From assembly GCF_016904885.1 (NCBI RefSeq), contig NZ_JADWYI010000001.1:7113224-7177223 (forward strand): a stretch of DNA of 64,000 nt, in the 5' to 3' direction. The notes below the pieces were generated by a model. The model ran no database searches. It was given only the letters and a program-made list of their open reading frames with translations, and had not been told where the DNA came from. Positions 15,002-38,160 of this stretch are shown piece after piece. Made by a program: the position numbers and the translations under genes. The stretch is from [Archangium] primigenium (GTDB lineage Bacteria > Myxococcota > Myxococcia > Myxococcales > Myxococcaceae). Position 1 is the first letter of the stretch. Each line of letters opens with the position of its first letter.

Positions 15002-15108
15002 CGGCCACACGGGGCCCTGGGAGTCAATCCCTCCGAGGGCCCGGTGTCGCACCTGGTGCAGCGCGGCGCGCTGGCGGGGCCGGCGCGGGGCATGGCAGCC
15101 TCCCGGCC

Positions 15109-16991: not shown

Positions 16992-17016
16992 CTGAATGGC
17001 GCCCCTTGTCTGATGC

Positions 17017-19647: not shown

Positions 19648-20459
19648 GCCTGCTCCTGCTCAACGGCTTCGAGTTCCCCCTCACCCAGGCCAACGCGGAG
19701 CCGGTGCGCGCGGGCGCGCTGGAGCGGGGCCCGGGCCTCGGAGTACGCTCGGGCGTGCGCGCTGCCGCGTGGGACCTGACGTGCGCCACCGGGTGGCTCT
19801 CCCAGGCGGACGCGCGTCAGGTGCGCGGCCTCGTGGAGGGAGAGGGGCACGTGCTCGCCTTCGACTCCACCCTCACGGCCACCTCGTACCTGTGGAGCTC
19901 GCGGGGCGCGGTGCCCAGCACCCAGGTAACGCCGGCGGTGGGCGGGCGCGTGCCGGGCCGCTGGGGTGGCGGCGCGCTCCGGGTGCGCGAGGACTACCAG
20001 GTGTTGTGGCCGGGGGTGTGCTCGGGCAGCGAGTGGACGGTGCTCGCATGGGCGCACCCGAGCGACACCGACACGGGGTACTGGGAGCACCGCACGTGGC
20101 GCTCGGACGGCGCCGTCTGGTTCAACGGCGTGGGGCCGCAGTTCGGCTACGGCCAGCAGGCCTATGTGGAGGGCGGGGCGCTGGTGCTTACCGCGGGCAC
20201 GGACACCCACCAGGACTGGGACGAGGTGGTGCTCCTCCCCTACTTCCTATCGGACGCGTGGGTGGCCCAGGCGTACGGCTTCCACCAAGCCACCCGCTGG
20301 CCTCCCCTGCCCTACGTGCTCGCCTCGGGCGCGGCGGTGCCCGGGGGAGCGGCCGAGGTGCAGGGACAGGCGGGCGGACTGCAACGGGTGGTGGCCGGGC
20401 CCGGCGCGTGGTGGGAGTCCTTCGACTTCACCCTCAATCGCTCACCATCCTCACCATGA
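19644..20459 (+). CDS. Phage tail protein (distal-tail-like)
   Basis: 271 aa, start overlaps tape measure stop (ATGA). Confidence 0.4.
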   Translation: MSLLLLNGFEFPLTQANAEPVRAGALERGPGLGVRSGVRAAAWDLTCATGWLSQADARQVRGLVEGEGHVLAFDSTLTATSYLWSSRGAVPSTQVTPAVGGRVPGRWGGGALRVREDYQVLWPGVCSGSEWTVLAWAHPSDTDTGYWEHRTWRSDGAVWFNGVGPQFGYGQQAYVEGGALVLTAGTDTHQDWDEVVLLPYFLSDAWVAQAYGFHQATRWPPLPYVLASGAAVPGGAAEVQGQAGGLQRVVAGPGAWWESFDFTLNRSPSSP

Positions 20460-20506
20460 AGCAGCAGTGGCGTGTGCGCTGCTTCAGCGTCAATCCCCTG
20501 TACCTA

Positions 20507-21334
20507 TTATGGCACCAAACCCTTGACGGATGACAGGTCGATCGGATCCAGGCGCTGCCCATCTCGGCTAAAGTACAAAGCACTCGGTAGCGAGTCGAAA
20601 TACAAGTACAGGCTATGAGCATGGTCGAGCGGACTGCCGTCACATCCCACTGTCCTCATCGGACCTAGAGTGGTGCCGATTATGTCATCGACTACAGCGA
20701 ACATCGCGGATGCACCGAACGCTGAGTTTGGGGGCCTAACACTAAATAATTTGAGTCGATCTTTTTCGGCCTCATTCACGCAAGCACGCCAGATATTGAT
20801 CGTCTCAAGACGAGGTTGGATTTCGAGAGCAAAAACGTATTTCTCACCAGGCGGAGATCGGTGTACCCGCATCTTCAGTGGACCGAGATTTCCGAGATCC
20901 ACTTGGTAGGCCTGCCCATTGACAGCTGCAACAACCTGCTTAACCCAATTAGGATCCCTCAACATCACGCCGAGGCGAGTAGTTAGCTTGGCGGGCATCT
21001 GCCGCGGCTCTATCTTGTGAATGAGCGCTATTAACGGAAACGCCACCCCGCGAGTACTGAGCGCGCGATCCAAGGCGTAGTTGAGCTCCTCCTGACATGG
21101 GTTGCTTGTAAGGCTGTCTGCTGTCACAACGACCGCATATGCGTCACTTCGTTCTGGGTTAACGATTTCAGACGCAATGTTGTCCCATATTCGCTGTCCC
21201 GCAGGAAGCTGCCTTCGGTCGAAGTGAACCTCAAGCTCTCCAGACTTCTCAAGCTCGCTTATGATGTAGTCCACATCCTGATCGCGGTTATCCGCCCAAG
21301 CGTAAGTCACCCAAAGTCGTTTTTTGGTGGTCAT
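20507..21334 (-). CDS. TIR-domain protein with uncharacterised C-terminal domain (moron)
   Basis: N-terminal RLWVTYAWADNRDQDVDYIISELEKSG...AVVVTADSLTSNPCQEELNYAL matches TIR beta-A/alpha-A and the conserved Glu motif; local GC about 50% against 70% in flanks; antisense to tail genes. Confidence 0.6.
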   Translation of the reverse strand: MTTKKRLWVTYAWADNRDQDVDYIISELEKSGELEVHFDRRQLPAGQRIWDNIASEIVNPERSDAYAVVVTADSLTSNPCQEELNYALDRALSTRGVAFPLIALIHKIEPRQMPAKLTTRLGVMLRDPNWVKQVVAAVNGQAYQVDLGNLGPLKMRVHRSPPGEKYVFALEIQPRLETINIWRACVNEAEKDRLKLFSVRPPNSAFGASAMFAVVDDIIGTTLGPMRTVGCDGSPLDHAHSLYLYFDSLPSALYFSRDGQRLDPIDLSSVKGLVP

Positions 21335-21382
21335 GGTCGCTCATTGTATCGCCAAATATGGCCCCGTCACTTCTCCGAGGGC

Positions 21383-23827: not shown

Positions 23828-23831
23828 GGCT

Positions 23832-24116
23832 TCACGCCCGGGCGGCACAGGCGGGGCAGTCCACCGCCCAGTCCTTGCCGCCCCCACTCGCGCCCCCGTC
23901 CTCCACGAGGCGCAGGCGGCCCTCCTGGGCGCGCACCCACGTGCCGCACGCGCACCGGGTCGCCCGGGAGTTGGGGCGGAAGCGCGGCGGCGCGCGGGCG
24001 CACTGGGGCTCGGGGTGGGAGAGGCCCTGCTCGGCGGAGAAGTCCGCTTCCTCCCCCTTGCGCACGAGTCCGCCGCAGGCCCGGCAGGTGCCCGCCCTCT
24101 TCGCCGTCAGAATCAC
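23832..24116 (-). CDS. Small zinc-ribbon protein
   Basis: About 94 aa with CxxC...CxC...CPAC pattern; GTG start overlapping upstream stop (GTGA). Confidence 0.3.
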   Translation of the reverse strand: MILTAKRAGTCRACGGLVRKGEEADFSAEQGLSHPEPQCARAPPRFRPNSRATRCACGTWVRAQEGRLRLVEDGGASGGGKDWAVDCPACAARA

Positions 24117-25100
24117 GCCGCCTCCAGCTCGGCGCGCAGGGCGGCGAGCCCCGCGGCGCGCGCGGCCTGCAGCTCGGGCAGCGAGCACTGGAGGCGTTGG
24201 GCGAGCCGGACGTCTCCCAGGGCCAGCCCGCCCAGACCCAGGGGCACGGCCACCGCCAGGCGCTGGCGCTCGGGCAGGCGCGCGAGGAGCGCGGTGGCGG
24301 CCGCGCCCAGGTGCACCCGCCCCAGGGACTCGTCGCTCTCGTCGGCGAGGCGCTCGGCCTCGGACTCCTCCACGCGCGTGGCCCCCAGGGAGAGGGCCAG
24401 CGCGGTGGCCCCGTCCGCCCCCTCCACCCGTAGCGCTTCCTCGTAGGCGAGGCCCTCGGACTCCACGCGCCGGCGCGCGCGGGCGGCGAGCTTGCGGCCC
24501 CACTGGGTGGGCCCCACGAGCCGCCCCTCGGCGAGCACGTTGCCCAGGTGCTGGCGCACCGCGCGCTGCACGTAGGCCGGGTACAGCGTGCGGCCCGGGC
24601 CTCCCTGGCCCGGGGTGAAGCCCTCCCAGAGACGCTGGGCGCGCAGCAGCGCCTCCTGCAGCAAGTCCGCGCGCGAGAGGAAGGTGCGCTCGTGGGTGCC
24701 CCACGCGCGGCGCGCCTCCTGCTCGAGTAGCGGGTGCAGCAGGCGGAGGAGCTCCCCCTCCGCCGCGCGCTGGCGCGGGCTGCCCCGTGTGGTGCCCCGC
24801 GCCTCACGCAGTGCGCGCTCGAAGGACTCGGCCACCTCGGGGGTGAGCCAGGTGCCGCGCGGGGCCCGGGTGAAGGGCAGCACCAGCTGCGCGCGGCCGG
24901 TGGTGGGGGCGGTGCGCTCGCGCAGGTGCGGCTGGTGTGCACGCCTCTCGCGGCGGCGGGCGCGCGCGGGCAGGTCGGCGAGGAAGGTGAAGGCCTGCTG
25001 CGCGGGCTGCCCGCCAGGCGCGGTGGGCGTCCGCTGCAAGTGGGAGGTGCGTGAGGAGGGAGCGCGGGACGTCGACGAAGGGCGGGCGGCGCACGGCATG
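24113..25100 (-). CDS. Sigma-70-family (ECF-like) sigma factor homolog
   Basis: Region-2-like DLLQEALLRAQRLWEGF and region-4-like LARLPERQRLAVAV; start taken at MPCAARPS. Confidence 0.4.
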
Positions 25101-25249
25101 GGCTCCACCACGCCGCGACTTCGCCGCTGTGTCCATTCTCCGACGCATGGGCCTGCGGCATGGCGGTCCGAGCGAGGGGCGCGTGAATAACGGCCGTCGG
25201 CTGGCGTCAGGACACGCCGTGGTACAACCCGGCGCGGGAGGGCCGCGCC

Positions 25250-26032
25250 ATGTCCAGCAGCCAACGGGGAAACCAACTCGGGCCGTACAAGCTCGAGCAG
25301 AGGTATCGGAACACGGGCGATCTGGGCCGCGTCTACCGCGCGCGCAACACCCTCACGGGAGCACCTGCGCTGGTGGTGAAGCCCACGGAGCGCTCGGCGG
25401 AGGACGATCCCCTCGCCGACTGGGAGCTCCATCTCTTCTCGTCCGTGTCGCCCGCCTACCTCGCGCTCGAGGTGAAGTCCGCCCCCGAGGCGGCCAACGC
25501 GGAGGCGGCAGGAGAGGAGCTCGAGTACATGTTGGACGACTTGCTGGAGGCGGTCATCCACACGAGGAAGCGCCCGGAGACCCTGCGCCACCTGCGCTCG
25601 CCCCGGCGTGTCCCGCGACGGCCGGTGAGCCACCTGCACCGGGTGTTCGGCGCGGCCCTCGCCGCCGCCTTCACGGGGCTAATTCTCTTCGCGGGAAACT
25701 CCGGCCCGCCGCTGACGCCCGTGGCGGAGCGCGAGCTCGCCCTGGCGCGGCACGACGCGGGCTGGGATGGCTCAGGGGACCTGACGGGCGGCGCGCTCAC
25801 CGGACTCGTGGACTTCGAGCCGTTCGCGCTCACGCGGCCGATGCCCACGAAGCCCTTCAAGGTGCAGAAGAAGCCGCCGTGCAAGACGACGATCGAGGAG
25901 GAGCACGCGAACGGCTGCTGGGTGCGCCTCCACGTCAACGCCCCTTGCCCCGACGAGGCGTACGAGCGCGACGGGCGCTGCTACCTGCCCGCCATCCCGG
26001 CAGCACCGCCGCCCGCATCAATCATGCCGTAG
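25250..26032 (+). CDS. Hypothetical protein with degenerate protein-kinase-like N-terminus and Cys-rich C-terminus
   Basis: LGPYKLEQRYRNTGDLGRVYRARNTLTGAPALVVKP resembles a kinase ATP-binding lobe; no catalytic loop follows. Confidence 0.3.
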   Translation: MSSSQRGNQLGPYKLEQRYRNTGDLGRVYRARNTLTGAPALVVKPTERSAEDDPLADWELHLFSSVSPAYLALEVKSAPEAANAEAAGEELEYMLDDLLEAVIHTRKRPETLRHLRSPRRVPRRPVSHLHRVFGAALAAAFTGLILFAGNSGPPLTPVAERELALARHDAGWDGSGDLTGGALTGLVDFEPFALTRPMPTKPFKVQKKPPCKTTIEEEHANGCWVRLHVNAPCPDEAYERDGRCYLPAIPAAPPPASIMP

Positions 26033-26553
26033 TCGCGCGGGCTTGACCGTGCGCACACCCAGTGCGTAGAGTCACCGCTGACGTACCGCGCCGTGCTTGC
26101 CGGGCTTGTCAGGCACGAAGCGCACCCCAAAATTCGCTGACGTGTCATCGCGTCGGCCGACGTGTGCCCGCCACTACGGACTGCCCTGGTGGTCGGCCGC
26201 GGACGCCTCGCATGAGTTTTACAAGCCCCTCATGCTGAGGCGTCTGTTTTTTTGGGGTGGAACAGATGCGCCTGGGGCTTGATCGCGAAGTTCTCGTCAC
26301 CGTGTCACCGGCTGCTCGCGCCTCGCGCGCTGGAGCACCCTCCCCCTCTACCGCTCCGCGTGGAGCCGTCGACCCGGACGTGGACGCCAGTCCGCTCATT
26401 CGGATGCGCCTGACGCACCGTCCACCGTGGAGACGGTGGCACGAAGGTTGGTAGCGCGGCGGTCGAAGTGCGGGCGGCGGCGGAGTGAATAGGACGCTGG
26501 ACACGAGAGCACGGACGCAGGGCGTCCGGCACTACACCTTGGGTGAAGACACC

Positions 26554-26754
26554 ATGATGGACGTGGACGTCACGACGGATGCGGCATGGACGGTCGACGA
26601 GGCCTCGCGCTTCCTCGGCATCAAGCCGAAGACGCTCTACCGGAAGGCCGCCGAGGGCACGGTCCCCTCCTTTAAGGTGGGCGGAGCGCTTCGGTTCAGT
26701 CCGGCGCGACTGGCCGAGTGGCGCGAGGCGCAGGCGCGCGGGGGTCGGGGGTAG
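26554..26754 (+). CDS. Excisionase-family helix-turn-helix protein
   Basis: About 66 aa, WTVDEASRFLGIKPKTLYRKAAEG HTH; immediately upstream of the integrase. Confidence 0.55.
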   Translation: MMDVDVTTDAAWTVDEASRFLGIKPKTLYRKAAEGTVPSFKVGGALRFSPARLAEWREAQARGGRG

Positions 26755-26756
26755 CC

Positions 26757-28358
26757 ATGGCCTTCGCCTTCTTCCGCCCCAGCACGCGCACCCAGAAAGC
26801 GGGGGCGAGCCTCGTTCGCTACCGGGGCCAGTACGGCGTCTGGTACGTGGGCTACAAGGACGATCACGGCCGACAGCGGCAGAAGAAGTCCGCCGCCTGC
26901 ACTCAGGCCGAGGCGGAGAAGCTCGCGGCGGAGCTCGAGCGGGCCGCGGAGCGCGTACGCCTGGGGCTGGACGCGAAGGTGAAGGAGGACATGCCCTACC
27001 GGGAGGCGGTGGCGCTGTACCTGGAGTCCCTGCCGCCCGAGTACCGCAGCAAGCCCCACCTGGAGTCGCGCTTCCGGTTGAGGATCCTCCCCCACCTGGG
27101 CGAACTGCCGTGCCGGGCCATGACGCCGGCGGACGTGAAGCGGATGCTCGCCGCCAACAGCACCGCCGCGCCGCAGACGCGCGAGCACCTGCGCATCGCG
27201 GTCCAGGGCAGCTACACCTTCCTTATAGAGGAGCTGAAGCTCGTCACGGGGGAGAACCCCGCGGCGAAGCTGGGCCGGGTGTCCATCCCCCGGCGTCGGC
27301 CGAAGTTCCTCCAGCAGGAGGACGTGCCGCGCCTGCTCGCGGCGGTGCCGGAGCAGCACCGGGCCGTTTTCACCGTGGCGGTGGGGACGGGGCTGCGCAA
27401 GGGGGAGCTCCTGGCGCTGCGCTGGGAGGACGTGGACCTTGTGCGCCGTTGCCTACATGTGGCGCGCAGCAACGACAACGACACCACCAAGGGCGGGCGC
27501 ACCCGGGTGATTCCGCTGCCCGCCTGGCTGGTGCCCCTCGTGCAGGAGCTGGCGCGCGAGGCCCGGAGCGCCTTCGTCTTCCCGGACCCCCGCGGGGCCC
27601 AGCAGAAGAAGTGGGTCGCCTTCCACCGCATCATGAAGACGGCCCTCAAGCAGGCGGGCTTGGTGGAGGGGTTCGACCACCGCTGCGTCACCCGGGGGAC
27701 CCGCCGGGGGTGTGGCCACGTGGAACGGCGCGCCGGAAGCGCCCGGGCGTCCTGCCCGACGTGCTCCGCGCTGCTGTGGCCCACTGCGGTGCCACTTTCT
27801 TTGAGCTTCAAGGACCTGCGCTCCACCTTCGGCACATGGGCCTACGCCCAGACCGGGAACATCCGCTTCGTCCAGGAGGTGCTCGGGCACCAGGACGTCC
27901 GGGTGACCGAGCAGCGCTACAGCCACGTGCTGGAGACGAACCTTCTCCAGCTCGCGGACCAGGTCCGCTTCGGGGCGCCCCCCAGTCTTATCAGCCAGTT
28001 GCAAGTGACGGACGGGCAAGCCCGGGGAAGACCGGGCACGGGCGAGAACGTCTTAACCAGGAGTACAGAGGGAGCAGGACACATGAGGGGAAACGAGGGG
28101 AAACGAGGGGAAAGCCGGGTAGACGTAGGAGTCGGCCTCCGAAGCCAAAGGCCGCTGGTTCGACTCCAGCATCGCGCACACAGGCAAGGGCCCGGAATCG
28201 TTGGGGAAAACCCCCATCAGTTCCGGGCCCTTCGCTTTCCCCGGACTCGCCTTGCAGCAAGGATGCAGCAAAGCCGTTCGCGGCCACTCCTTGCCGCACG
28301 GCGCTCCCCCTCAAGACCTTCCCGGTGGCGGCCTCCGCCTCGACGCTCGGCGGGATGA
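26757..28358 (+). CDS. Tyrosine integrase (phage integrase family) with Cys-rich insert; true 3' end uncertain because the ORF reads through the att repeat
   Basis: Catalytic-domain R...HxxR...Y layout (LRKGELLALRWEDV, VTEQRYSHV); insert CVTRGTRRGCGHVE...CPTC. Confidence 0.8.
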   Translation: MAFAFFRPSTRTQKAGASLVRYRGQYGVWYVGYKDDHGRQRQKKSAACTQAEAEKLAAELERAAERVRLGLDAKVKEDMPYREAVALYLESLPPEYRSKPHLESRFRLRILPHLGELPCRAMTPADVKRMLAANSTAAPQTREHLRIAVQGSYTFLIEELKLVTGENPAAKLGRVSIPRRRPKFLQQEDVPRLLAAVPEQHRAVFTVAVGTGLRKGELLALRWEDVDLVRRCLHVARSNDNDTTKGGRTRVIPLPAWLVPLVQELAREARSAFVFPDPRGAQQKKWVAFHRIMKTALKQAGLVEGFDHRCVTRGTRRGCGHVERRAGSARASCPTCSALLWPTAVPLSLSFKDLRSTFGTWAYAQTGNIRFVQEVLGHQDVRVTEQRYSHVLETNLLQLADQVRFGAPPSLISQLQVTDGQARGRPGTGENVLTRSTEGAGHMRGNEGKRGESRVDVGVGLRSQRPLVRLQHRAHRQGPGIVGENPHQFRALRFPRTRLAARMQQSRSRPLLAARRSPSRPSRWRPPPRRSAG

Positions 28359-29616
28359 GCGGTTGGGCTCGTAGCCCGAACTGGAGGCTGTCCACCTCCG
28401 TGCGGAGATAGTCCGGCGTCAGGTGACCGTAGACCTCGCTGGTGATGCGCGGGTCGCGATGTCGGAGGAGCTTCTGCACCCCGACCAGCGGAACGCCCGC
28501 CCGTAGGAGCAGCGTCGCGGTCGTGTGCCGCAGATCATGGAACCGGATGGGCCGCACCTGGGGCGAGGGCCAGAGCCGCATGCCGCACCGTGGGCACTGC
28601 CGGGGCTCGGCGTCTGGCGCCATCTCCGCGTCCCCGCAACCCTTCCGGCGGCAGACGTGGCGGTAGCCCGTCACGACGCCCGCGCGCCCCAAGGCCCGGC
28701 GCAGCACGTCCTCCAAGGCCACGTCCCGGCGCATCATGGAACCGTCCTCGGAAGGGAACACCAGCGCCGAGGGCGAGCGGCGGATCGCCTCCTCCAGGAA
28801 GGGCACCAGTTCGGTGGCGATGGGGATGACGTCCGCGTGGCCCCCCTTGGTCGTGTCGCGCTGCCATGACCGGCCCACGGTGAGCAACCGGCTCGGCACG
28901 TCCACGTCCGTCTTCCGCATGGCCAGCAGCTCTCCCTTGCGCAGCCCCGTATAGAGGGCGGTGGCGAAGAGAGGGCGCCAACGCTCGGGCAGCGCGTCGA
29001 ACAGGCGCGGCACTTCCTCCATGCGCAGGAAGTCACCGATGCGGCGCGGGACGGTGCGCTTCTTCACGTCCGCGACGGGGTTGGGTCCGCTGTAGCGTCC
29101 GACCGCGCGCGCCTCATTGAACGCACGGCTGACGAACCCCCGCAGGTGGTTGATCGTCTGCGGAGAAAGCTCCTGCTCCTTCTCCTTCAAGAACGCCCGC
29201 AGCCGGGGCGCCGTCACCGCCGTGAGGGGAAGCGCGGCGAGGCTGGAGGGGAGCAGGTGGCGCGAGACCTGGCTCAAGTTGCTCGCATGGGAGGGAGAGT
29301 TGACCGAGCAGGTGTCGAGCCACCAGCGCAGCAACTCCGCGAGTGTCCCGCCGCCGTCCTCGGGCAGTGGCGCCTCCAAGCCGAGCCGTTGCCGCTCGGC
29401 CTTCTGCTCAAGCTCCGCCGCGATCCGCCGGGCCTCCGTCTTCGTGCGCGCCTGGGTCACCTTGTCGCGCCACCGCCCCCCCGCGTCCTTGAACCGCAGA
29501 TACCACTTGCCCGCCTTCTCATAGACGCTCGCCATGGCTATCGCTTCCCCTTCTGGCGCGTCGGCTTCGCGGACGCGGGCTCGGTGGTCGTGAGGTAGCC
29601 CCGGGCCGTCAGCCAC
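27991..29616 (-). CDS. Tyrosine integrase 2 (paralog of 26757 integrase); 3' end reads antisense through att copy A, real stop probably near 28180-28250
   Basis: HDLRHTTATLLLRAGVPLVGVQKLLRHRDPRITSEVYGHL catalytic block; Cys-rich insert CRRKGCGDAE...CPRCG. Confidence 0.8.
   Translation of the reverse strand: MADGPGLPHDHRARVREADAPEGEAIAMASVYEKAGKWYLRFKDAGGRWRDKVTQARTKTEARRIAAELEQKAERQRLGLEAPLPEDGGGTLAELLRWWLDTCSVNSPSHASNLSQVSRHLLPSSLAALPLTAVTAPRLRAFLKEKEQELSPQTINHLRGFVSRAFNEARAVGRYSGPNPVADVKKRTVPRRIGDFLRMEEVPRLFDALPERWRPLFATALYTGLRKGELLAMRKTDVDVPSRLLTVGRSWQRDTTKGGHADVIPIATELVPFLEEAIRRSPSALVFPSEDGSMMRRDVALEDVLRRALGRAGVVTGYRHVCRRKGCGDAEMAPDAEPRQCPRCGMRLWPSPQVRPIRFHDLRHTTATLLLRAGVPLVGVQKLLRHRDPRITSEVYGHLTPDYLRTEVDSLQFGLRAQPLIPPSVEAEAATGKVLRGSAVRQGVAANGFAASLLQGESGESEGPGTDGGFPQRFRALACVRDAGVEPAAFGFGGRLLRLPGFPLVSPRFPSCVLLPLYSWLRRSRPCPVFPGLARPSLATG
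28085..28114. repeat. Short tandem repeat (GAGGGGAAAC) x3 adjacent to att copy A
   Basis: Direct reading of the sequence. Confidence 0.6.
28137..28241 (+). repeat. att-type direct repeat copy A: 3' 42 nt of a tRNA-like gene (T-arm GCTGG-TTCGACT-CCAGC, acceptor ATCGCGC-A) plus degenerate downstream hairpin
   Basis: 53 nt identical and about 105 nt at roughly 88% identity to copy B at 37306..37410; no matching 5' tRNA half upstream. Confidence 0.55.
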
Positions 29617-29735
29617 TCGGCCAGGATGTGAACCGCCATGCCGGAGGATGAGCGGAGGTCCTTCGTCGCTGCCCGCGCGAGCGCCTCCTTCACCGTGACC
29701 GGCAACCTCAGATTCAAGGTGGAATCTCTCTTCAT
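29538..29735 (-). CDS. Ribbon-helix-helix-like small DNA-binding protein
   Basis: MKRDSTLNLRLPVTVKEALARAA beta-strand-then-helix pattern. Confidence 0.3.
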   Translation of the reverse strand: MKRDSTLNLRLPVTVKEALARAATKDLRSSSGMAVHILAEWLTARGYLTTTEPASAKPTRQKGKR

Positions 29736-29766
29736 GGGGTCAGTGTAACACAAGTGGCAACACACC

Positions 29767-29988
29767 CTAGCGGGTGGACTTCTGGGGGAACGTCAGGAGC
29801 CGGGATGCGGGGGGACGCTCGCCCTTCACCCACGCGCGCACGGCCTCCGGCTCGAAGCGCAAGAGCCCCCCGACATGCAGGCACGGCAACTCGCCCGCCG
29901 CCGTCTTCTGGTAGACCCAAGAGCGGCTCACCTGGAGGAAGCGCGCGACGTCCTGCACCGTCCAGAGGGGTGCTGGGTTGCTGCTCAT
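29767..29988 (-). CDS. AlpA/excisionase-family HTH regulator
   Basis: WTVQDVARFLQVSRSWVYQKTAAGELP HTH; adjacent to the integrase as in P4-like islands. Confidence 0.55.
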   Translation of the reverse strand: MSSNPAPLWTVQDVARFLQVSRSWVYQKTAAGELPCLHVGGLLRFEPEAVRAWVKGERPPASRLLTFPQKSTR

Positions 29989-31373
29989 GACTCATGCTCC
30001 ATGGTGCTGGCCGAAGCCGGTGGATTCTTCGCTTCCTTCTCTTTCTTCGCCTCGGCGGTGCCGAAGAACCACCGCTCCGAGGGACGCCCGCCAGTGGGTT
30101 TCACTTGCTTGTAAGCAACGCCCGCGCTGGAGAGGTCGTCCAACGCTCTGCCGAGTTCCGCGCTCGTCACATGCCCGGTGAAGAGCTTCATCAGCTCCGA
30201 CCGGGAAACGCCCTCGGGGCACTCTCGCAGGGCCGCAAGAATGCGGTTCGCGCGTGGGTCCTGCCGCGCCCCGCCGAAGATGTGGCGCGCGCTGCTGCTC
30301 GCGTATTCCATGAGCGCCAACGCGGCGGAGAGGTGCGCCTCCTCGATGACCTTCGATCTGTCGAGCAGCGCGTAGAGCAGGGACAGCCGGACGACTTGCG
30401 CCTCCGCTCGCGAAGTGGCCTGACCGAATAGTCCGGGCTTGTCGCTGGACAGCGACTCGTAGACCTCATGCCAGAGCGTCCGGGCCGCTTCCGACCTCCT
30501 GACCTCCTCCACGTCGCGGGCCCACATCTGGACCTGAGCGAGGCGCGAAGAAAGCGAAGAAAGCGAACCATCGTCGAGGTTCCCGCCCTCGGGCAGGAGC
30601 TTGGAGCGACGCGCGAACACCCAGAGGAACCGGTTCGCGAGGCCGTTGGCCATGTCCGTGGCCGAGAGCAACGCGCGCAGTTCCGGAATCGTGATGTGCG
30701 CCACGACGGACACATGGGCCTCGGTGGCGCGCTGAGGCGCACCCTTGGTGAGGACCTGGAGCGAGCCAGAATCCCACGCCTCGCGGAGGACTGCGGAGAG
30801 GCTGTTCCCCTCTCGGTTCATCCTGCGAAGCGCCGAAGCGAACTCCGTCTCCACCATCATCAAGCGCTTGTCGGAAACCCCCTGATCGTCGGAGTCCCCA
30901 TCGCGAACGGCATGGATGAGCCCCTCTCCGGTGCTGAGGCCCTTTTGAAGACGGGGACCCCACCCCGGCTCCGAGGTGTTCAGGACTCGTTCCACCCATG
31001 ACCAGGAAGTGCCCTTCCTCGCCTTGGCACTCTGGCCGACGATGGCCGCGAACAGGTTGGCGTGATGCCGGGTCGCCTCGACCTTGAAGAACGGTGAGCG
31101 GCACATGGCGTTGCCTGCGGCCACCAGGAACTGAATCAGGATGGCGGCGGGATCGGCTTCCGTGTGCGGCTCGATGGTCCGCACGAGGTCGCCAGCCAGA
31201 CCGTGAAGCGCGGGTGATTCCAGCGACAGAGGCGCGGGTGGAGGCTCCTCCCGCCCCGGGCCCGTGGCTGAGGGTGGTGCCGCGGCACCTGCCGCGAGGT
31301 CGGGAATCGTCGCGAGGGCCGGGGGCCGTTGACCGGCACGTCTACGGGCGTTCGCGTCCATGCCGCCCATCAC
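29985..31373 (-). CDS. DUF3987-like (YfjI-like) protein of P4-type integrative elements
   Basis: 462 aa, position between AlpA-like and primase genes; compositional resemblance to DUF3987 proteins. Confidence 0.35.
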   Translation of the reverse strand: MMGGMDANARRRAGQRPPALATIPDLAAGAAAPPSATGPGREEPPPAPLSLESPALHGLAGDLVRTIEPHTEADPAAILIQFLVAAGNAMCRSPFFKVEATRHHANLFAAIVGQSAKARKGTSWSWVERVLNTSEPGWGPRLQKGLSTGEGLIHAVRDGDSDDQGVSDKRLMMVETEFASALRRMNREGNSLSAVLREAWDSGSLQVLTKGAPQRATEAHVSVVAHITIPELRALLSATDMANGLANRFLWVFARRSKLLPEGGNLDDGSLSSLSSRLAQVQMWARDVEEVRRSEAARTLWHEVYESLSSDKPGLFGQATSRAEAQVVRLSLLYALLDRSKVIEEAHLSAALALMEYASSSARHIFGGARQDPRANRILAALRECPEGVSRSELMKLFTGHVTSAELGRALDDLSSAGVAYKQVKPTGGRPSERWFFGTAEAKKEKEAKNPPASASTMEHES

Positions 31374-32456
31374 TCAGCCCTCCCCGTGTTGTCGCGCTTC
31401 AACCTGCACCGTCCGGTGAGGCTGGCGGCAATGGTCCGTGCATACCTGTCCCCCGCCGCGTCCTGGTGGGTCTCGATGGCCACGGTGGTGCCGTCGGGGA
31501 CTCGTGCCGCGATGGCGGGCGACCAACTTCCCGACAGGACGCTGAGCACGGCGGGCGCGGCTTCGTCCGCGTCGCTGTAGTCCGTGGCTCGCGTGAGGAA
31601 GTCTGGAAGCCCTTCCATCACCCACAGGCCGTTTCGAGCGACCAGTTCCGAAGCGGGTATTCCGTCCGCCAAGGCCCCCCTTTCAAGCATGCGCAGGCCG
31701 AGGGCATCGGCCATTACGAGACCGCGCACCTCCGCTCCCGCAGGGCTCGCGGCCTTGTGGGCGGGCTGAACATCCGGCCTCACGCTCCGCGCGTGCAGAC
31801 TGGCCAGGGCGCCCATGTCGCTCCACAGAGGCACGACGAGCCGATGGCCGCTCTGACTCCACGCCTGACCCATGAAGCGGGCCCAGCGCGGCAGGAGGGC
31901 GCCTTCGGGGAGAACTCGGGCAAGGCCCCGATCATCCACATCGCCCGCGTTGAGCCCACGAGAGGCGAGCCAGGCGCTCACCTCCGCGTCCTCCACCACC
32001 CGCCGCGCGGAGTTCCAGACCTCCGCAACCTCGGCCGCGTTGGCGCGCATGGGCCGCACTTCTTCTCGGAGGCGCGGAGGTGCCCAAGCCCGCACCTGCG
32101 GACCGAGGGGCGTGTTCGTGGGATCGGGCGAGCAGAGGCCACGCTCGGCGCATGCGCGGTGGAGTTCACCCCACTCCGGACCTGTCGCCCGTCGCTTGCC
32201 CGAGATGCACCAGGACACGAGATGGAGGGCATCGCCCTTCTCTCCGCACTCGAAGCACTCCCAGCCGGAATCGTCGGGTCGGACCCCAATGGCCCCGCGC
32301 TTATCGCGTCGGCCCGGGTGCCGTGTTGCCGCCGAACACGCCGGGCACGGAGACAGACCATTGCGTCCCCGTAGCAGGAGCCCGAGGGAACGCGCGACAT
32401 GCCTCACCCCCCGAGCCCTCACGCATGCCATCCACTCCGAGATCGCGCCACTCATG
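31370..32456 (-). CDS. DNA primase: CHC2-type zinc finger plus Toprim-like domain
   Basis: CPAC...H...CFEC zinc-binding motif near the N-terminus; C-terminal acidic Toprim-like block (VMEGLPDFLTRATDYSDADE); ATGA overlap with upstream XRE gene. Confidence 0.45.
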
Positions 32457-32685
32457 CGCCCCCCTTGCGACCAAGGAGCGAATCCACGTCCGTGGCCAGC
32501 GCTTGGGCCAGGAGGGTGAGCGTTTCGGTCGTGGCGGCGCCGAAGCGCTCGGCATCCCGGAGCCGGGGGATGGAAATGCCCGCCCTGGTCGCGAGCACCT
32601 GTTGAGAAAGGCCACGGCTTTTTCGGAGCGCAATGATGCGCTCTCCGAGGCCAGGGACACTGCGCTTCCGCATGTGCATGAGCAT
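32455..32685 (-). CDS. XRE-family HTH transcriptional regulator
   Basis: LGERIIALRKSRGLSQQVLATRAGISIPRLRDAERF. Confidence 0.45.
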
Positions 32686-32737
32686 GGGAGTGACGGTGCA
32701 CTCCGGCGGCTTGTTCCACGAGCGGTCGTGGAAAGAA

Positions 32738-33493
32738 TCAGCGCTTCTCCAATTCCGCCTTCCAGTTCCCACGCTTCGCTCGCGCGTACACCGCGCTCTG
32801 CCCGAAGCCACTGGCCTCCATGGCGTCCTTTACGGCCCGGTGTGCCCTGCCGCGCCTATGCGCGTTGAGCCACGCCTGTTTTGCGCGCGCCCAACGGGGT
32901 TCATCTTTCTGCTGTCCCGTGTTGAAACGGCGACCGAGCGATAACAATGCGTTCGCGACCTCAGAGCTATCGCTCGACACCGCAGCGACCAGCACCTTGC
33001 TGCGTGGCTCTAGCGCGAAACCTTCGGTCTGAAGAAGGATGCTGGCGAAAAGCATCCGATGGTCATGCGTATCGCGAAGCTTGGGTGATATCCCCTCGAA
33101 TATGCGCCTCGACTCTGGATTAAGCTGGCCGAGAGCATGTGAGAGCTGTTCCTCTTGTTGCCGTGCTTCTTCCGCCCTCAGGTCTGCCCACTTCTTCTGC
33201 TGGCGTGCTACCTGCTCAGGATCCTGAGGCGCCTTCAGTAACTCAGCCATCGCCAGTTGCATACGCATCGCTTCACTCAAATCCGGAGCGCCCCCAAAGG
33301 AGAATGGAGGTGGCGTTGATGAGGGTGCGCGCAGTCGTTGGATCGCACTTGAACTCTGGCTCGGAGCAGCACTGGTAAGGCCGCGACCACGCTGGACCGG
33401 CTTCGCTCGGGTACCCCGGGCCTTTGAACGAGTTTTGGACGTGGAGGGAGAACCGCTCTTCGGTGTTTTCTTGGGCACTTGTGCGGGCTCCAT
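32738..33493 (-). CDS. Hypothetical protein with basic disordered N-terminus
   Basis: ORF with window-typical codon usage; start chosen at MEPAQVPKK. Confidence 0.3.
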   Translation of the reverse strand: MEPAQVPKKTPKSGSPSTSKTRSKARGTRAKPVQRGRGLTSAAPSQSSSAIQRLRAPSSTPPPFSFGGAPDLSEAMRMQLAMAELLKAPQDPEQVARQQKKWADLRAEEARQQEEQLSHALGQLNPESRRIFEGISPKLRDTHDHRMLFASILLQTEGFALEPRSKVLVAAVSSDSSEVANALLSLGRRFNTGQQKDEPRWARAKQAWLNAHRRGRAHRAVKDAMEASGFGQSAVYARAKRGNWKAELEKR

Positions 33494-33874
33494 CCGCGCT
33501 CTGGGCACAAGGGCGGGTCGTTCGCAGCGGTGCCGCCCTACTCTTACTGACCTAGCGTGAGGGCGAGAGCCTAGCCAAGTCCCCCCCCCCCCCTCCATCC
33601 ATGCGGTCGATGCCCATGGACGACTGCGCGCATGTGGCGCCCCGTCACCGCGATTGAATGACGAGGGCAGAATTCCAAGGTGGCGGCCGTTGGGGAGGTC
33701 GCGGTCTGCACAGCCGGAGCACGACCACGACAGCATGGGAGCCCCTTGCCTCGCGCTCGTTGAGCCAACGCTGTGCCGCAGCATCGTCGTCATCCTCGTA
33801 CAGGTCCAGAACGGACAGGGAGGACTTGTCCTGGCTAGCTCGCCGCTCCAGGGCCTCGATTCGGGAGCGCAGAT

Positions 33875-34165
33875 TTACCGCGCGCAAGACAGTGCCCCTG
33901 GATGTGAAGGACCTTCTCGCCGAGCTGAGGCTTCGAGCTTGGCGAGGCGCTCCTCCAGTTCGGTCCCCTGGATGATGCCCGCGAGCACCGAATAGGCGTA
34001 GATGAGCGCCCGGGCCTTTCCCGCGTCCATAGTGCCGTCCTCCAAGGCGCGAATGCAGTCAGCAAGCCCAGTCTTCACGTTCCCGAGGCTCGCCAGTCGC
34101 CGACGCCGCCCACGGGGGGGAGGGAGGGGCGGTGCTTGCTGATTTTCTCTTGTGTTCACGGGCAC
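33875..34165 (-). CDS. Hypothetical protein
   Basis: 96-aa ORF. Confidence 0.25.
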   Translation of the reverse strand: MPVNTRENQQAPPLPPPRGRRRRLASLGNVKTGLADCIRALEDGTMDAGKARALIYAYSVLAGIIQGTELEERLAKLEASARREGPSHPGALSCAR

Positions 34166-34334
34166 TTACCTCTCTCAGCCTTGGCGCTGGAGGCTCGATT
34201 ATACCCACTAGATGGCTGCATAGCCGCAGCAAGAACAATTAGTAGGCGATGTAACTCAAGGAGCCTTTGCGGAGTGGAAGGTCAGCACTTTGGCAGCCCC
34301 TTCCTTTCGATGTGATCCGCTGTAAGCTCAAGCT

Positions 34335-35501
34335 ATGCAACCAAGCGGCAAAGAGCCCTTTGACCCCAACGCCGAAGAGACGCTCAGTCCTGACGAAAAA
34401 GCCCTTTCTGACTCTAATGATGAAGAGCCTTCTGCCTCTGTTCGCGCTAAAGACAGCAATGCATGGCTTGCATACTGGCTGATTGGCTCGGGCATGTGCG
34501 TTGTATGCGGACTTGCATGGGGGGGTGTATTTCGGCCTCAAGTAGGTGCCATCGGCATCGTTACGGGGACGGTATTTTACCTGGGTGGGTTCGCCCTTCG
34601 CGTTGCCAGCTGGAAAACTGGTGATCGGGGACACTCCTATGAAAAATCTCTATCCCTCAGGCGTTTGGTAACAATCGCCTGGAGTTGTCTCTGCTGGATG
34701 AGCGCGGGTCTTGCGCCTGCGATTCTTTATCCTTCGGCGCTGCGGGGGCCACGCGCCACGCGATTGGAGGAGTTTGGCCTCATGTGCATGACTGGCCTTG
34801 CTACCTTGCTGTTGTCCCAAATGGCAGGCTGGAGTGTTCAGCATCCTGAGCGCATCAAGATGCTCTTAGCATTCATTGGCATACACAGCAAAAGCATGCG
34901 TCGGGAAGCACATCAAGACATGCTCGCAATGGCACAGGACATTCTCGGGAAGTTTCCTGAGCCGGAGCGCAGCCGGAGTGGGGAGGTTTACTTCGATGTT
35001 CGGTCATACCCGCTTGAATTTCGATTGCAGGCTGCCGAAACACTAAGAGATCTTCTCTGGCACTGCGAGCTGCCGCAGATAAAGCCTAAGAAGCTAGGAA
35101 ATTCAGCCGTCATGAGGGACCTCTCAGAAGGCATTGAACTCATGAAGGCAAATTTGAGCGGAATATACAGTCCCCACTCAAGACTGCGTGCTCGTGCGCT
35201 CTTCTATGCTGAGATATTTGCGCTTCTGAAAGATCAAGCAAAGTCTGTCGAAGAAAGCCCTGGCATGGCTCTTTACTTCATGAAGAGTGCAAATGCCGAA
35301 GATGGGCTTACGTCGACCTCACGCCTGGTCCTGTCTTGGTTTCCGACTGAGGCATCACTTGAAGCCGCACGTAGAGCGCTTGGCGGAAATGACTCAATCT
35401 TCCGACTGGAGCCTCGCGCAGATGCCATCGCACTACTAAACAAGCTCGAAGTGAAAAGTGAGGAGCTTGGTTTGTCTGTTCGCTCGGATAAAGATGGCTG
35501 A
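34335..35501 (+). CDS. Four-TM membrane protein with about 210-aa cytoplasmic C-terminal domain; low-GC cargo of the integrative element
   Basis: Four hydrophobic helices at residues about 45-170; locus GC about 50%; AT-rich upstream region. Confidence 0.5.
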   Translation: MQPSGKEPFDPNAEETLSPDEKALSDSNDEEPSASVRAKDSNAWLAYWLIGSGMCVVCGLAWGGVFRPQVGAIGIVTGTVFYLGGFALRVASWKTGDRGHSYEKSLSLRRLVTIAWSCLCWMSAGLAPAILYPSALRGPRATRLEEFGLMCMTGLATLLLSQMAGWSVQHPERIKMLLAFIGIHSKSMRREAHQDMLAMAQDILGKFPEPERSRSGEVYFDVRSYPLEFRLQAAETLRDLLWHCELPQIKPKKLGNSAVMRDLSEGIELMKANLSGIYSPHSRLRARALFYAEIFALLKDQAKSVEESPGMALYFMKSANAEDGLTSTSRLVLSWFPTEASLEAARRALGGNDSIFRLEPRADAIALLNKLEVKSEELGLSVRSDKDG

Positions 35502-35608
35502 GAAGGTACCTCCGAGTCTGCCTTGTTCGGAGTCTTTTTGAGGCTGCTTAATGCTATCCTCGGCGCCTATGCGGGTATTCTTCCTGCTTTCCTGCTGACG
35601 TGGCCTTC

Positions 35609-35908
35609 TCAATCAGCTTTTTCTTCCTCGGGAAACAAGTCCCTTAAAGGAACCTTGTAGGCCACGGCAGCGGCCACCAGGGTGGCCATGGTGAAGTTCG
35701 CGTTCCCCTGCTCCATCTTGATCACGTGCTTTGGGTGCACCCCGATGGCCTCGGCGGCCTGCTCCTGAGTCAGCCCGCGCTCTTGCCGAAGTTCGCGCAG
35801 TCGAACCCCGACGCGGCGCAGCTCCCGCTTGATGGCTCGGGCCGTCGGGCCTCGGGTCCAGACCTCTGAACGACCTCGCTTCGTGGACGTCTTCCCTGTG
35901 GTGGGCAC
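35609..35908 (-). CDS. XRE-family HTH regulator
   Basis: LRELRQERGLTQEQAAEAIGVHPKHVIKMEQG. Confidence 0.5.
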   Translation of the reverse strand: MPTTGKTSTKRGRSEVWTRGPTARAIKRELRRVGVRLRELRQERGLTQEQAAEAIGVHPKHVIKMEQGNANFTMATLVAAAVAYKVPLRDLFPEEEKAD

Positions 35909-36037
35909 GAGGTCGGCTTATCCAGGGTCGCTCTTGAGCTACACAGCTTATGAACTACATGACGCAGGTAGTTCTTGAGCTACGTAGCTTATGGGCTACC
36001 ATGGAAGTAGGCCCCAACCTACGAAAGGACGGCCTAC

Positions 36038-36604
36038 ATGCCCGAAGAGACCGAAGCCAGGAGCCCCGACCCGATGGCGGTCAGCCTGGACCTCGAACTG
36101 TTGACCCTCGCGGACGCGATCCGAGGCGCGGAGATGCTCGCGGACTACCAGGCCCGCCAAGGGTTCATGGACGAGGCATCGGAGAAGGATGCACCCGTGT
36201 GCGTCTTCTCCATCCTCTCGCTCGTGGGAGGACGCCTCAAGCAACTGCGCCGGGTGGTCCGTGGTGAAGAGGACCCGGTGCACCTCTGGGGGCCGCACAA
36301 CGAGACCGACCTCCCCGAGACGCTGGCCGAGGGTGTCGGGGACATCATCCTGTTCCCGTGGAAGGCCCGAGGGAGACCGCTGGTCTTCGCCCGGCCATCC
36401 ACCTGGAGGGTTGAGCCGGAGGAGAAGAAGGGGCGAGCAGCGGTGGGCCACGAGGCCACGCGGCAGAAGGGCCAGAAGAGCCCGAAGGGACGAAAGGCGA
36501 AGACGCCGAAGCACTCTGGGGCGAAGAAAGCGGCCGGGCCGGTTGGCGAGACCCCGAACGCCCAAGGGGACGAGCAGCGGGCGACCGCTCCAGTCTCACC
36601 GTAG
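36038..36604 (+). CDS. Hypothetical protein with lysine-rich basic tail
   Basis: 188-aa ORF. Confidence 0.35.
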   Translation: MPEETEARSPDPMAVSLDLELLTLADAIRGAEMLADYQARQGFMDEASEKDAPVCVFSILSLVGGRLKQLRRVVRGEEDPVHLWGPHNETDLPETLAEGVGDIILFPWKARGRPLVFARPSTWRVEPEEKKGRAAVGHEATRQKGQKSPKGRKAKTPKHSGAKKAAGPVGETPNAQGDEQRATAPVSP

Positions 36605-36610
36605 TCCAGA

Positions 36611-36656
36611 GGACCGGTTCCGGTTCCCCCTATAGGGACGGGAACCGGGAACCACC
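36611..36656. repeat. Imperfect palindrome ggaccggttccggttccccctatagggacgggaaccgggaaccacc (copy 1)
   Basis: Dyad symmetry centred on CTATAG; related copy about 300 bp downstream. Confidence 0.6.
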
Positions 36657-36906
36657 CGCAGCACCCTGGCAGCGGCTCCGCACGGCGTCAGCACCCACCC
36701 CTCGCCCCCTCGCCTCGGCCAGCAACCGGCATCCACCCCAAGAATAAATTTAATGAGGGTCAGCAATAAAGCTCCACCGGAAGTGGTGAGGTCGCTTCAT
36801 GCAGCGCCGACAAGCGACCACTTTAGACCACCTATCACCACCTGCCCTCATGCTCCGCAGCAGCCACGCCGAAGCCACCCGCGCCGGTCGTGGCGTGGGC
36901 CAGGGA

Positions 36907-36952
36907 GGTGGTCCCGGTTCCCCTATATTAAGGAGGGAACCAGGAACCACGG
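36907..36952. repeat. Imperfect palindrome ggtggtcccggttcccctatattaaggagggaaccaggaaccacgg (copy 2)
   Basis: Shares cccggttcccctata and gggaacc.ggaaccac with copy 1. Confidence 0.6.
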
Positions 36953-36961
36953 CCCTGCCCC

Positions 36962-37210
36962 TCAGCGCTGCCCCCGGGCAAGGAACGTGTCCAGGGACTC
37001 CAAGGGGACGCGGATCGCGTTGCTGACCCGCACGTGCGCCAGCTCGCCCCGCTCGCAGAGCCGGTAGACGGTCGCGGTGCTGAGGCCCAACCACTCCGCC
37101 ACCTCGCGCACGGTGAGCAGGCGCCCCGGCGCTCCCGGCAGGGCGCGGAGCCGGGTGAGGGCCGGGGCTTGCAGCACGGGTGCAGCAAACGGCTTGCGAC
37201 CCCCTGCGAC
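36962..37210 (-). CDS. Excisionase-like HTH protein (start codon uncertain)
   Basis: C-terminal LLTVREVAEWLGLSTATVYRLCERGELAHVRV HTH. Confidence 0.35.
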   Translation of the reverse strand, partial: VAGGRKPFAAPVLQAPALTRLRALPGAPGRLLTVREVAEWLGLSTATVYRLCERGELAHVRVSNAIRVPLESLDTFLARGQR

Positions 37211-37305
37211 CGGATGGGACGATTGGACGGAGGACGAGCCCTCACCCCCAATGATTCCAAGGGGTTGCGAAGGACTGGTAACGGCTGGACGGCTTCCCCC
37301 TTCGC

Positions 37306-37410
37306 CTCCGAAGCCAAAGGCCGCTGGTTCGACTCCAGCATCGCGCACACAGGCAAGAGCCCGGAACCGTTGGGGAGAACTCCCCGCTGGTTCCGGGCTT
37401 TTGTTTTTCA
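37306..37410 (+). repeat. att-type direct repeat copy B: same tRNA 3' fragment followed by an intact terminator
   Basis: Identical 53-nt core with copy A; downstream GCCCGGAAC...GTTCCGGGC hairpin plus TTTTGTTTTT. Confidence 0.55.
37358..37409 (+). terminator. Rho-independent terminator following the tRNA-like 3' end
   Basis: GC-rich hairpin gcccggaaccgttggggagaactccccgctggttccgggc followed by T-run. Confidence 0.55.
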
Positions 37411-37774
37411 TTGTCCTCGTCGTGTGGCGGGCACCATCGGAACCGCCTGTGCACGTGCGCCCTCCGTGCGAAGTGAGCGCCCCACTCCCATCACCCGTCC
37501 GCCAGGTCCTCACGGCAAGCGGGGAACCTCCATGGCAAGCGAGCACCTCCGGCGAAAGAACGCCGCATCACGACGCGCGGAGAGCCCTTCTCAAACGGAA
37601 TTCGGCGCATGCACGGCATCGACAACGGCCTCGTGCTGATTGTCCGCGCCCATCGCCAATGAAGGTCCCCTTCGCAAGACAGGACCACACGCGTCGCGCC
37701 ATGGAATGCGCCACGCACGCGGCGTGGCCAATGCCAGGCGCGAGGTGCCTCCGTGGGTTCAAGCGCTTGGAAAT

Positions 37775-37860
37775 TGCACGAGCCGGGGATCGAACCCGGA
37801 CGGCCCCTTCGGGCCAGCGGATTTTAAGTCCGCTGCGTCTGCCAGTTTCGCCACTCGTGC
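37775..37860 (-). tRNA. tRNA-Leu (anticodon TAA), class II with long variable arm
   Basis: Manual fold: acceptor GCACGAG/CUCGUGC, anticodon stem GCGGA/UCCGC with loop CUUAAAA, variable stem-loop GGCCC-GAAG-GGGCC, T-arm CGGGG-UUCGAUC-CCCGG, discriminator A. Confidence 0.8.
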
Positions 37861-38160
37861 ACAGGCGCCACACAGCCCCGGCTGGCGGGCTCACTTCAAC
37901 ACGATCCCCAGGCAGCGAAAAAGGGGGATGCGCGAAACGATACGCCAGGCCTGGAGGCGGAGGGGGCGTGACCCAGGACCCTTCCCCCCAAGCGACTCGC
38001 GAGCGGCCCGGACAGCCGCGAGGGAACGCCTCGGGCCGACCTGCCCACCGGGGGAGAACGCACCCAAACGGAGCGCGGAAATCCGAGAATTCATCCAGTG
38101 GACGGAGGAAGGCGCACATGGGCATCCCGTCCGGGACGCCGCTGTTATATAGCGACCGCC

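Follow-up and report, generated by a model that had tools for sequence, protein, structure and literature searches.

The stretch of the [Archangium] primigenium genome analyzed here (64,000 nt, G+C content ~70%; referred to below as the window) carries a siphovirus-like prophage, X (~1668..28134, + strand), and an adjoining 9.1-kb element, Y (28189-37303), each with a tyrosine integrase of its own, here termed IntA and IntB. Y is delimited by a 104-nt direct repeat (28135-28238 and 37304-37407, 87% identical), whose longest unbroken identical run, the 54-nt attachment (att) core, occupies 28135..28188 in copy A and 37304..37357 in copy B. Both cores lie on the + strand, i.e. in the direct orientation that the Islander scheme expects of island boundaries; copy A is a hybrid junction, with the P arm of X on its left and the P' arm of Y on its right, and copy B forms the right end of Y. 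A preliminary description of this DNA, made from the sequence alone, had already reported a repeat of ~105 bp with a shared core: the repeat is real, but its coordinates were placed ~2 nt off, and the core is 54 rather than 53 nt long and divides into 44 + 10 rather than 42 + 11 nt. It consists of the 3' 44 nt of a tRNA-Arg(CCG) gene, up to the discriminator base, and 10 nt of downstream sequence, and it starts 2 nt ahead of the anticodon loop, which in the Rfam alignment reads CUCCGAA, i.e. anticodon CCG, Arg. A 46-nt core pattern has exactly two occurrences in the window, with 0 expected by chance.

Since a simple terminator scan missed the long hairpins that follow both cores, they were assessed by folding. 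The hairpin 3' of copy A (28182..28237, +; -40 kcal/mol, z -5.6) lacks a T-run and falls inside the IntB open reading frame (ORF) of the opposite strand; IntB-type elements typically have this hairpin in their P' arm. The hairpin 3' of copy B (37351..37406, +; -43 kcal/mol, z -7.5) is terminator-like, because the T-run TTTTGTTTTT comes after it. The earlier statement that only copy B retains an intact terminator therefore holds for the T-run but not for the hairpin, as both copies fold strongly.

The exact 44-nt tRNA part of the core is absent from 185,579 GTDB representative genomes and from IMG/VR, because the common tRNA-Arg allele of the relatives differs at four positions (G37, a compensated T-stem pair, and G73). 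Written out, the allele found here (28135-28178; 9279-9353 in the comparison sequence L093) has A37, a CUGG/CCAG T-stem and A73, and that of most relatives has G37, a CAGG/CCUG T-stem and G73. In a scan of metagenomes, an intact tRNA-Arg(CCG) of exactly the allele found here turned up in the contig L093, directly downstream of tRNA-Leu(taa) and ffh and followed by its native terminator, which makes this contig an empty attachment site at the syntenic tRNA-Leu/ffh locus and bears out the initial assignment of the core to a genuine tRNA. In L089 and L094 the exact allele, again with the native terminator, is located 3' of IntA-type integrases. Whether a junction belongs to the IntA or the IntB family, in every case examined the match to the tRNA begins at one position, GCCTCCG; the two families share both the tRNA and the point of recombination in it.

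Copy A is flanked by the two integrase genes in convergent orientation. IntA (26757..28358, +; PF00589, E 6e-26) is immediately preceded by a xis/uoi-like HTH_17 gene (26554..26754, +), and IntB (27991..29538, -; PF00589, E 8e-23) starts with a conserved MASVYEK at 29538. The preliminary description had recognized this convergent, paralogous pair correctly (the proteins are 35% identical, E 2e-72), but had placed the start of IntB at 29616. Both ORFs cross the core and overlap mutually by 368 nt. Each integrase takes its tail at copy A from DNA of the other element. Relative to the tRNA core the two genes face opposite ways, each in the usual arrangement of its family. The proteins share an insert of the form Cys-x(4-8)-Cys...Cys-x2-Cys (Cys4) between the box I arginine and the (H/K)-x-x-R motif, which in IntA reads K-x-x-R in place of H-x-x-R. 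The insert had been remarked on before as unusual; it is present in both proteins, but it is conserved family-wide, Mx9 Int included, and is a hallmark of a large Mx9-related clade (>800 matches). The top phage-database matches of both integrases are those of the myxophages Mx9 and Mx4, and Mx8 Int is not among the matches of either at E<=1e-5. Compared directly with Mx9 Int (OQ709411 / AY247757), IntA shows 33% identity (E 7e-19) and IntB 36.5% (E 2e-31).

The nearest homologues of IntA (76-87% identity) are found in Cystobacter fuscus DSM 52655, whose prophage (L090) is related to X, and in metagenome contigs. The order common to L090, L089 and L094 is xis (HTH_17), int, a core in sense orientation, and the host terminator, which, judged from its layout, is the tRNA-distal junction of an X-type prophage integrated alone. 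In the window, too, the xis-IntA module lies upstream of the core and points in the same direction, so the integrase of X sits at the tRNA-distal junction. IntA is conserved only to about residue 430, and the tail beyond is non-conserved read-through. A perfect 10-nt tandem repeat (GAGGGGAAAC, 2.9 copies) occupies 28085-28113, just ahead of core A, and because of it the frame of the IntA tail differs from that of the nearest homologues. With the tail unconserved, its frame shifted, and three homologues terminating ahead of the core, we regard the read-through of IntA as incidental. Thus, the suggestion that both integrase ORFs cross the core as described for Mx8 is right as to the crossing, but only in IntB is the crossing conserved and functional-looking; for IntB the core lies within the int ORF of the free form and the C-terminus changes upon integration in the manner of Mx8 and Mx9, and for IntA the frame and extent of the read-through are not conserved.

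IntB is full length, with all catalytic motifs present, and belongs to a family with 815 matches at E<=1e-20 among the candidates scored. A 74%-identical homologue in Vitiosangium (L004) converges on an intact tRNA-Arg, the normal arrangement of the family, and typical integrated homologues are ~465 aa long and take their stop codon from the complement of the tRNA D-arm. The integrated IntB ORF of the window reads across the hairpin and core A and ends after a further 51 codons of X DNA, which occupy the place of a linker and a C-terminal HTH_17 domain; on this structure, IntB as it stands is a truncated, tail-swapped form made by integration. The detached 3' part of the gene (36962..37303, -), comprising the linker and HTH_17 (~36962-37120), is found at the other end of Y: an ORF at 36962-37546 (-) crosses copy B in the same frame that IntB uses across copy A and ends in HTH_17 (E 4e-13). 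When IntB and this detached part are joined via the core, the reconstruction is an in-frame 580-aa Int-HTH_17 protein, collinear with fused homologues, linker included. To judge from these two gene forms, integration is shown to split the int gene of Y inside the linker.

The fused homologues form a subset of the IntB family, 540-610 aa long, in which the tRNA-encoded peptide is followed by a C-terminal HTH_17 (PF12728). We compared 16 of them (30-76% identity, with peptides derived from different tRNAs), and the frame is open in 16/16; Mx9 Int is one of these, with the Cys4 insert and with HTH_17 at residues 489-537 (E 3.5e-11). The fused form occurs in the terminase-bearing phage-like contigs L085 and L086, i.e. 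as free attP, and also at the junction between two tandem Y-type elements in L097. In the AlphaFold model of a 76%-identical homologue (P0005), residues 1-385 form a confidently predicted recombinase with a beta-structured insert, residues 401-500 a disordered linker that holds the tRNA-encoded segment, and residues 501-556 a confidently predicted winged helix; the fold of the model matches the lambda and Tn1549 integrases. Both arms of the reconstructed attP of Y carry a 22-nt repeat with the consensus TTTGCTGCAyCCkTGCTGCAAG, namely TTTGCTGCATCCTTGCTGCAAG in the P' arm (28251..28272, -) and TTTGCTGCACCCGTGCTGCAAG in the P arm (37168..37189, -; 20/22 identical to the P' copy), and the repeat is found on both arms of the related element in L095 as well; we propose these repeats as candidate arm-type protein-binding sites. 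We found no published account of the Int-linker-HTH_17 architecture, in a literature search that did not cover Julien 2003 on the int gene of Mx9. What appears to be new here is that IntB is of the Mx9 type, that its ORF spans attP, and that circularization would restore an in-frame HTH_17 fusion.

We are thus fairly confident that two unrelated integrative elements have inserted in tandem at the anticodon-loop site of tRNA-Arg(CCG) by means of paralogous Mx9-related Cys4-insert integrases, and that the int gene of Y spans attP. Their tandem array is of a known kind, combining Mx8/Mx9-type integrases with the tandem islands known from tRNA genes. IntB shares with Mx9 Int the Cys4 insert, the peptide encoded by the tRNA complement within the ORF, and the C-terminal HTH_17 downstream of it, although Mx9 is a complete podovirus-like phage at tRNA-Gly and Y is an element without structural genes at tRNA-Arg(CCG). 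The int gene of Mx8 contains attP and receives a new 3' end upon integration, and Int reads through the tRNA complement (PMC6070905, where Tojo 1996 and Magrini 1999 are summarized); furthermore, a uoi/xis HTH_17 gene is located upstream of int, as it is for IntA. Mx8 differs in that its Int has neither the Cys4 insert nor a detectable C-terminal HTH_17, and in that its target is tRNA-Asp. The tandem islands of the Islander collection, where integrases that cross attP are also on record (PMC4383910), resemble the array in their directly repeated 3' tRNA gene fragments, an integrase for each island and an anticodon-centred site, and the sizes here (~9 kb and ~26 kb or more) match that type. Here, however, the intact tRNA is outside the window, and the integrases face each other across one core with overlapping ORFs. 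As with Y, the "suicidal" integrases of archaeal spindle-shaped viruses of the SSV type carry attP in the ORF and have their gene split by integration (PMC7253208, PMC8371274); there the catalytic protein is disrupted, whereas here the catalytic part stays whole and only the linker and an accessory DNA-binding domain are removed.

The int gene of free, circular Y encodes the catalytic domains, a disordered linker of ~100 residues containing the tRNA-complement peptide, and the C-terminal winged-helix HTH_17; integration cuts the gene inside the linker and strands HTH_17 at the far end of Y. Were cores A and B to recombine, Y would be excised and the 580-aa gene restored. In Mx8, efficient integration is reportedly a property of the full-length form, and lysogeny is stabilized by the lower activity of the truncated prophage form. 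By analogy with the conversion of Mx8 IntP to IntX, the full-length form of IntB would be the efficient integrase, its excisionase-type HTH_17 would probably bind the 22-nt repeats on both arms, and the truncation would damp excision and thereby stabilize the integrated state. The analogy with Mx8 is functional and not structural, since no HTH_17 was detected by Pfam in the C-terminal part of Mx8 Int.

Several observations weigh against the tandem-array interpretation or complicate it, beginning with that missing Mx8 domain. At 70% G+C long ORFs readily stay open, although the 16 independent open-frame cases argue against chance. There is no intact tRNA-Arg in the window according to ARAGORN and Rfam, the only tRNA detected being the host tRNA-Leu(taa) (37774..37861, -), and in agreement with the preliminary description we found no tRNA-Arg 5' half there either, with <=3 mismatches allowed; the intact tRNA gene, in the same orientation, that Islander places at the end of an array is accordingly missing from the window and may sit outside it. 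Similarly, the window yielded no left att copy for X, whose left end may lie outside. Without these two parts the array as seen is incomplete. The remaining difficulties concern orientation. In every relative tRNA-Arg reads away from ffh, oriented as tRNA-Leu is, and both cores of the window read towards ffh (38098-39789, +; protein 96-97% identical to those of C. fuscus Cbf 10 and of a metagenome contig, which marks the source as a Cystobacter-like myxobacterium). The array is inverted relative to the ancestral tRNA-Arg, a point that the preliminary description had missed. The relatives L093 and L001 are syntenic with the window exactly as far as the 3' end of tRNA-Leu(taa), and the 195-nt Leu-Arg spacer of L093 is replaced by 363 nt (37411-37773), for which we found no match anywhere. 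The hairpin at copy B is of the IntB-element or Myxococcaceae type, not the native tRNA-Arg terminator of Cystobacter, and the structural block of X (1668-25100) is inverted relative to the xis-int module in comparison with the prophage L090.

Taken together, the missing tRNA and att copy, the inverted cores with the lost spacer, the non-native flank of copy B and the inverted block of X point to at least one rearrangement, and X may be unable to excise. The orientation would follow from a single inversion of the entire array if X extends past the left edge of the window. We also considered an integrase-mediated inversion between inverted cores and rejected it, as it predicts an intact tRNA-Arg beside tRNA-Leu, which is not seen. 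A repeat of the tRNA-Leu 3' end, the sign of a larger island at tRNA-Leu, was not found, and the genes of the left flank (an amidohydrolase and a lipoprotein) were not located near ffh in the relatives.

The genes of Y lie in the order Int, RHH, HTH_17/AlpA, DUF3987, primase-like, XRE, variable cargo, XRE, 188-aa ORF, and the HTH_17 tail. A 65-aa ribbon-helix-helix (RHH) protein of the CopG/Arc type (29541..29738, -) ends 2 nt ahead of the IntB start codon. It is followed by a 73-aa HTH_17/AlpA-like, excisionase-type protein (29767..29988, -), whose start overlaps the stop of the DUF3987 gene (ATGA); the 462-aa DUF3987 protein (29985..31373, -; PF13148) also matches a PHROG helicase family. 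The next ORF (31370..32455, -) encodes a 361-aa primase-like protein with a weak Zn-ribbon primase match (E 0.02-0.04), whose homologues give Pfam matches to Toprim and zf-CHC2. Two XRE-type HTH regulators (32452..32811 and 35609..35908, both -) bracket the variable cargo region (32738..35501), which has no family matches and contains an ORF at 32738-33793 (-), a conserved 96-aa ORF (33875-34165, -) and a low-GC ORF for a 388-aa membrane-like protein (34335-35501, +). A conserved 188-aa ORF (36038..36604, +) is common to the Y-type elements of L095 and L096. The gene content of this interval had been described in much the same terms, and Int, the AlpA-like protein, DUF3987, the two XRE regulators and the low-GC gene are confirmed; the primase is weak by direct match and supported via its homologues. 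No structural, lysis or conjugation genes were detected among the ORFs of Y with Pfam and PHROG, in line with the earlier remark on structural genes, and PADLOC found no defence system in the cargo. Sequence searches of the PDB with the primase-like and DUF3987 proteins gave nothing useful, and scans of IMG/VR with the DUF3987 protein and IntB yielded no close relatives.

Relatives of Y were nevertheless recovered in several genomes and contigs. L095 contains a ~8.7-kb Y-type element, 85% identical, at tRNA-Gly(CCC) amid housekeeping genes and without an adjoining prophage. In this element (L095 5380-5620 and 13780-13960) the int gene is 85% identical to that of IntB at the nucleotide level through the catalytic domain and then continues into another tRNA core, an apparent swap of target specificity; the displaced tRNA-Gly(CCC) fragment and the regenerated tRNA differ by compensated T-stem changes. 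L096, from C. ferrugineus, has a decayed Y-type copy at tRNA-Met with a degraded int; genes with TreTu_C/TriTu domains and a MACPF gene (4257-5887) take the place of the low-GC cargo gene there. In L087 and L088 the xis-IntA/core/IntB junction recurs at 83% identity, next to a variant element (Y') with AAA_25 instead of DUF3987. Y is, as far as these relatives indicate, a member of a conserved ~9-kb family of myxobacterial islands, found at three different tRNA genes with or without a neighbouring prophage. X-type prophages in turn occur without Y (L090, L089), and X and Y share no sequence outside the integrases. Since each is found alone elsewhere, the two are independent, and their tandem position reflects a shared target.

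It is possible, and we raise it tentatively, that Y is a helper-dependent minimalist satellite, similar to P4 or to the phage-inducible chromosomal minimalist islands (PICMI), with its own Int, AlpA and primase-helicase and packaged by a helper that might be X. This is compatible with the anatomy of a tandem array and concerns how Y moves between cells. Y is a 9.1-kb element in which we detected no structural, lysis or conjugation genes, and it has the three core markers of PICMI, i.e. Int (PF00589), an AlpA-type regulator (PF12728) and DUF3987 (PF13148), along with an XRE pair and a variable cargo slot of satellite-like character. The Y family, at 82-85% nucleotide identity across genomes and at three tRNAs, is mobile with no visible transfer machinery, which makes helper-dependent transfer plausible, and the junction of an X-type int, the core and a Y-type element recurs in L087. 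The PICMI of Vibrionaceae (PMC10803314), defined by Int, AlpA (PF05930 or PF12728) and a DUF3987/DUF5906 primase, all of which Y possesses, also resemble it in having no capsid-remodelling genes, a small gene abutting int, and variable cargo. They differ in adjoining fis and in that their packaging by virulent phages was shown experimentally, whereas Y belongs to Myxococcota and is bounded by tRNA-Arg cores, with relatives at tRNA-Gly and tRNA-Met.

The preliminary description had spoken of a P4/CP4-57-type gene set, and Y indeed has an integrase, an AlpA-type regulator and a primase/helicase module, a size of ~10 kb and tRNA integration in common with P4-like elements (PMC10085698); that label is too strong, however, since the psu-delta-sid operon and epsilon were not detected among the ORFs of Y by Pfam or PHROG, very distant analogues being possible. 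In addition, the alpha function is split over two proteins in Y and its integrase is of another clade. Y therefore fails the P4 definition, and its set is the generic core of Int, AlpA and primase, as in PICMI or "PICI type C". The packaging and capsid genes (terS, ppi, cpm) that phage-inducible chromosomal islands (PICI) possess besides int, a regulator and pri-rep gave no matches in Y. The attachment sites of PICI are said not to be shared with prophages, and the core of Y is common to prophage X.

Against a satellite stand, moreover, the lack of family matches to Psu, Sid, delta, epsilon, TerS or capsid-remodelling proteins in Y, the lack of common sequence between X and Y beyond the integrases, and the occurrence of Y-type elements without an adjacent prophage (L095) and of X-type prophages without Y (L090, L089). 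Given the last of these points, the tandem position, which had been read as the mark of a candidate helper, is no evidence for a helper relationship. IntB-type modules are also found in complete phages (L085, L086, Mx9), and the authors of SatelliteFinder deem a set of Int, AlpA and primase too small to discriminate between satellites and other mobile elements (PMC10085698). We found no published report of satellites in Myxococcota. A bolder proposal, which we regard as doubtful, is that Y-type elements are the first satellite family of Myxococcota, PICMI-like and hopping between tRNAs, and that their integrase is a self-editing switch in which integration would strip HTH_17 and excision or tandem insertion would restore it, so that insertion beside X would rewrite both C-termini and couple the fates of the two elements.

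That Y is instead a remnant of an Mx9- or L085-like temperate phage, i.e. its early and integration region, now immobile, seems unlikely. The order of primase/helicase, HTH_17, small regulator and Int does correspond to the int-proximal part of L085 and L086, a decayed copy with a degraded int exists in C. ferrugineus, and the array of the window is itself rearranged. The ~9-kb architecture with intact genes is found, however, in at least four independent genomes or contigs and at different tRNAs, the cores are identical at 54/54 positions, IntB is full length with complete catalytic motifs and its attP-form ORF rebuilds in frame, and what sets Y' apart from Y is the swap of an entire module (AAA_25 for DUF3987) rather than decay. 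Finally, it is very unlikely that X and Y are one composite prophage, with two integrases, replication and lysogeny genes supplied by Y, and an internal core copy left over: X has in the window only structural genes, xis and int, and the primase, helicase and XRE genes are in Y, but each part is found alone elsewhere with its own att copies or host genes (X in L090 and L089, Y in L095), and the internal copy is an exact 54-nt core with a typical IntB-type P' arm.

In the structural region of prophage X we identified TerS (4877-5512), TerL (5512-7050), portal (7072-8436), capsid (9341-10210), head-tail adaptor (11979-12710), tape-measure (17017-19647) and tail (21224-23827) genes. Between the last two, a patch of low GC harbours a TIR-domain gene of opposite orientation (20507-21334, -; PF13676, E 4e-11; with a weak PADLOC match to SAVED-TIR), likely a moron or defence gene. 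Upstream of terS, a 357-aa ORF (3759-4832) carries a copy of the C-terminal part of terL (4284-4604 versus 6457-6777, 78-81% identical), and is a partial duplication of the terminase nuclease region. Two near-identical GC-rich hairpins of 31 nt (873-903 and 1680-1710, 94% complementary mutually) bracket a lipoprotein gene (977-1657), and the one at 1680-1710 recurs within the C. fuscus prophage (L090 6884-6932).

Beyond ffh, the window contains a low-GC patch (41000-46000, 0.48-0.57) with an insertion sequence encoding an rve transposase (43168-44043), beside which an ORF at 44132-45319 gives a weak RelA_SpoT match and is conserved in relatives. Further downstream, a single 4089-aa ORF occupies 49348-61617 (-), with a G+C content at third codon positions of 0.95 and conservation at the DNA level in relatives.

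As a natural example of competition between two unrelated mobile elements for one tRNA site, the locus is a clean one. It also shows a domain architecture of a large, so far undescribed integrase clade to which the laboratory tool Mx9 Int belongs: a recombinase and an excisionase-like DNA-binding domain are joined by a disordered linker, and attP is located in this linker. This makes the old idea, derived from Mx8, of a "reversible covalent modification of integrase" testable at the level of domains, and may matter to those who work in myxobacteria with int-attP vectors derived from Mx8 or Mx9. With the ~9-kb Y family there is now a concrete candidate for a phage satellite of myxobacteria, which would be the first. 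Only if the satellite or switch functions were shown would any of this count as a new kind of biology.

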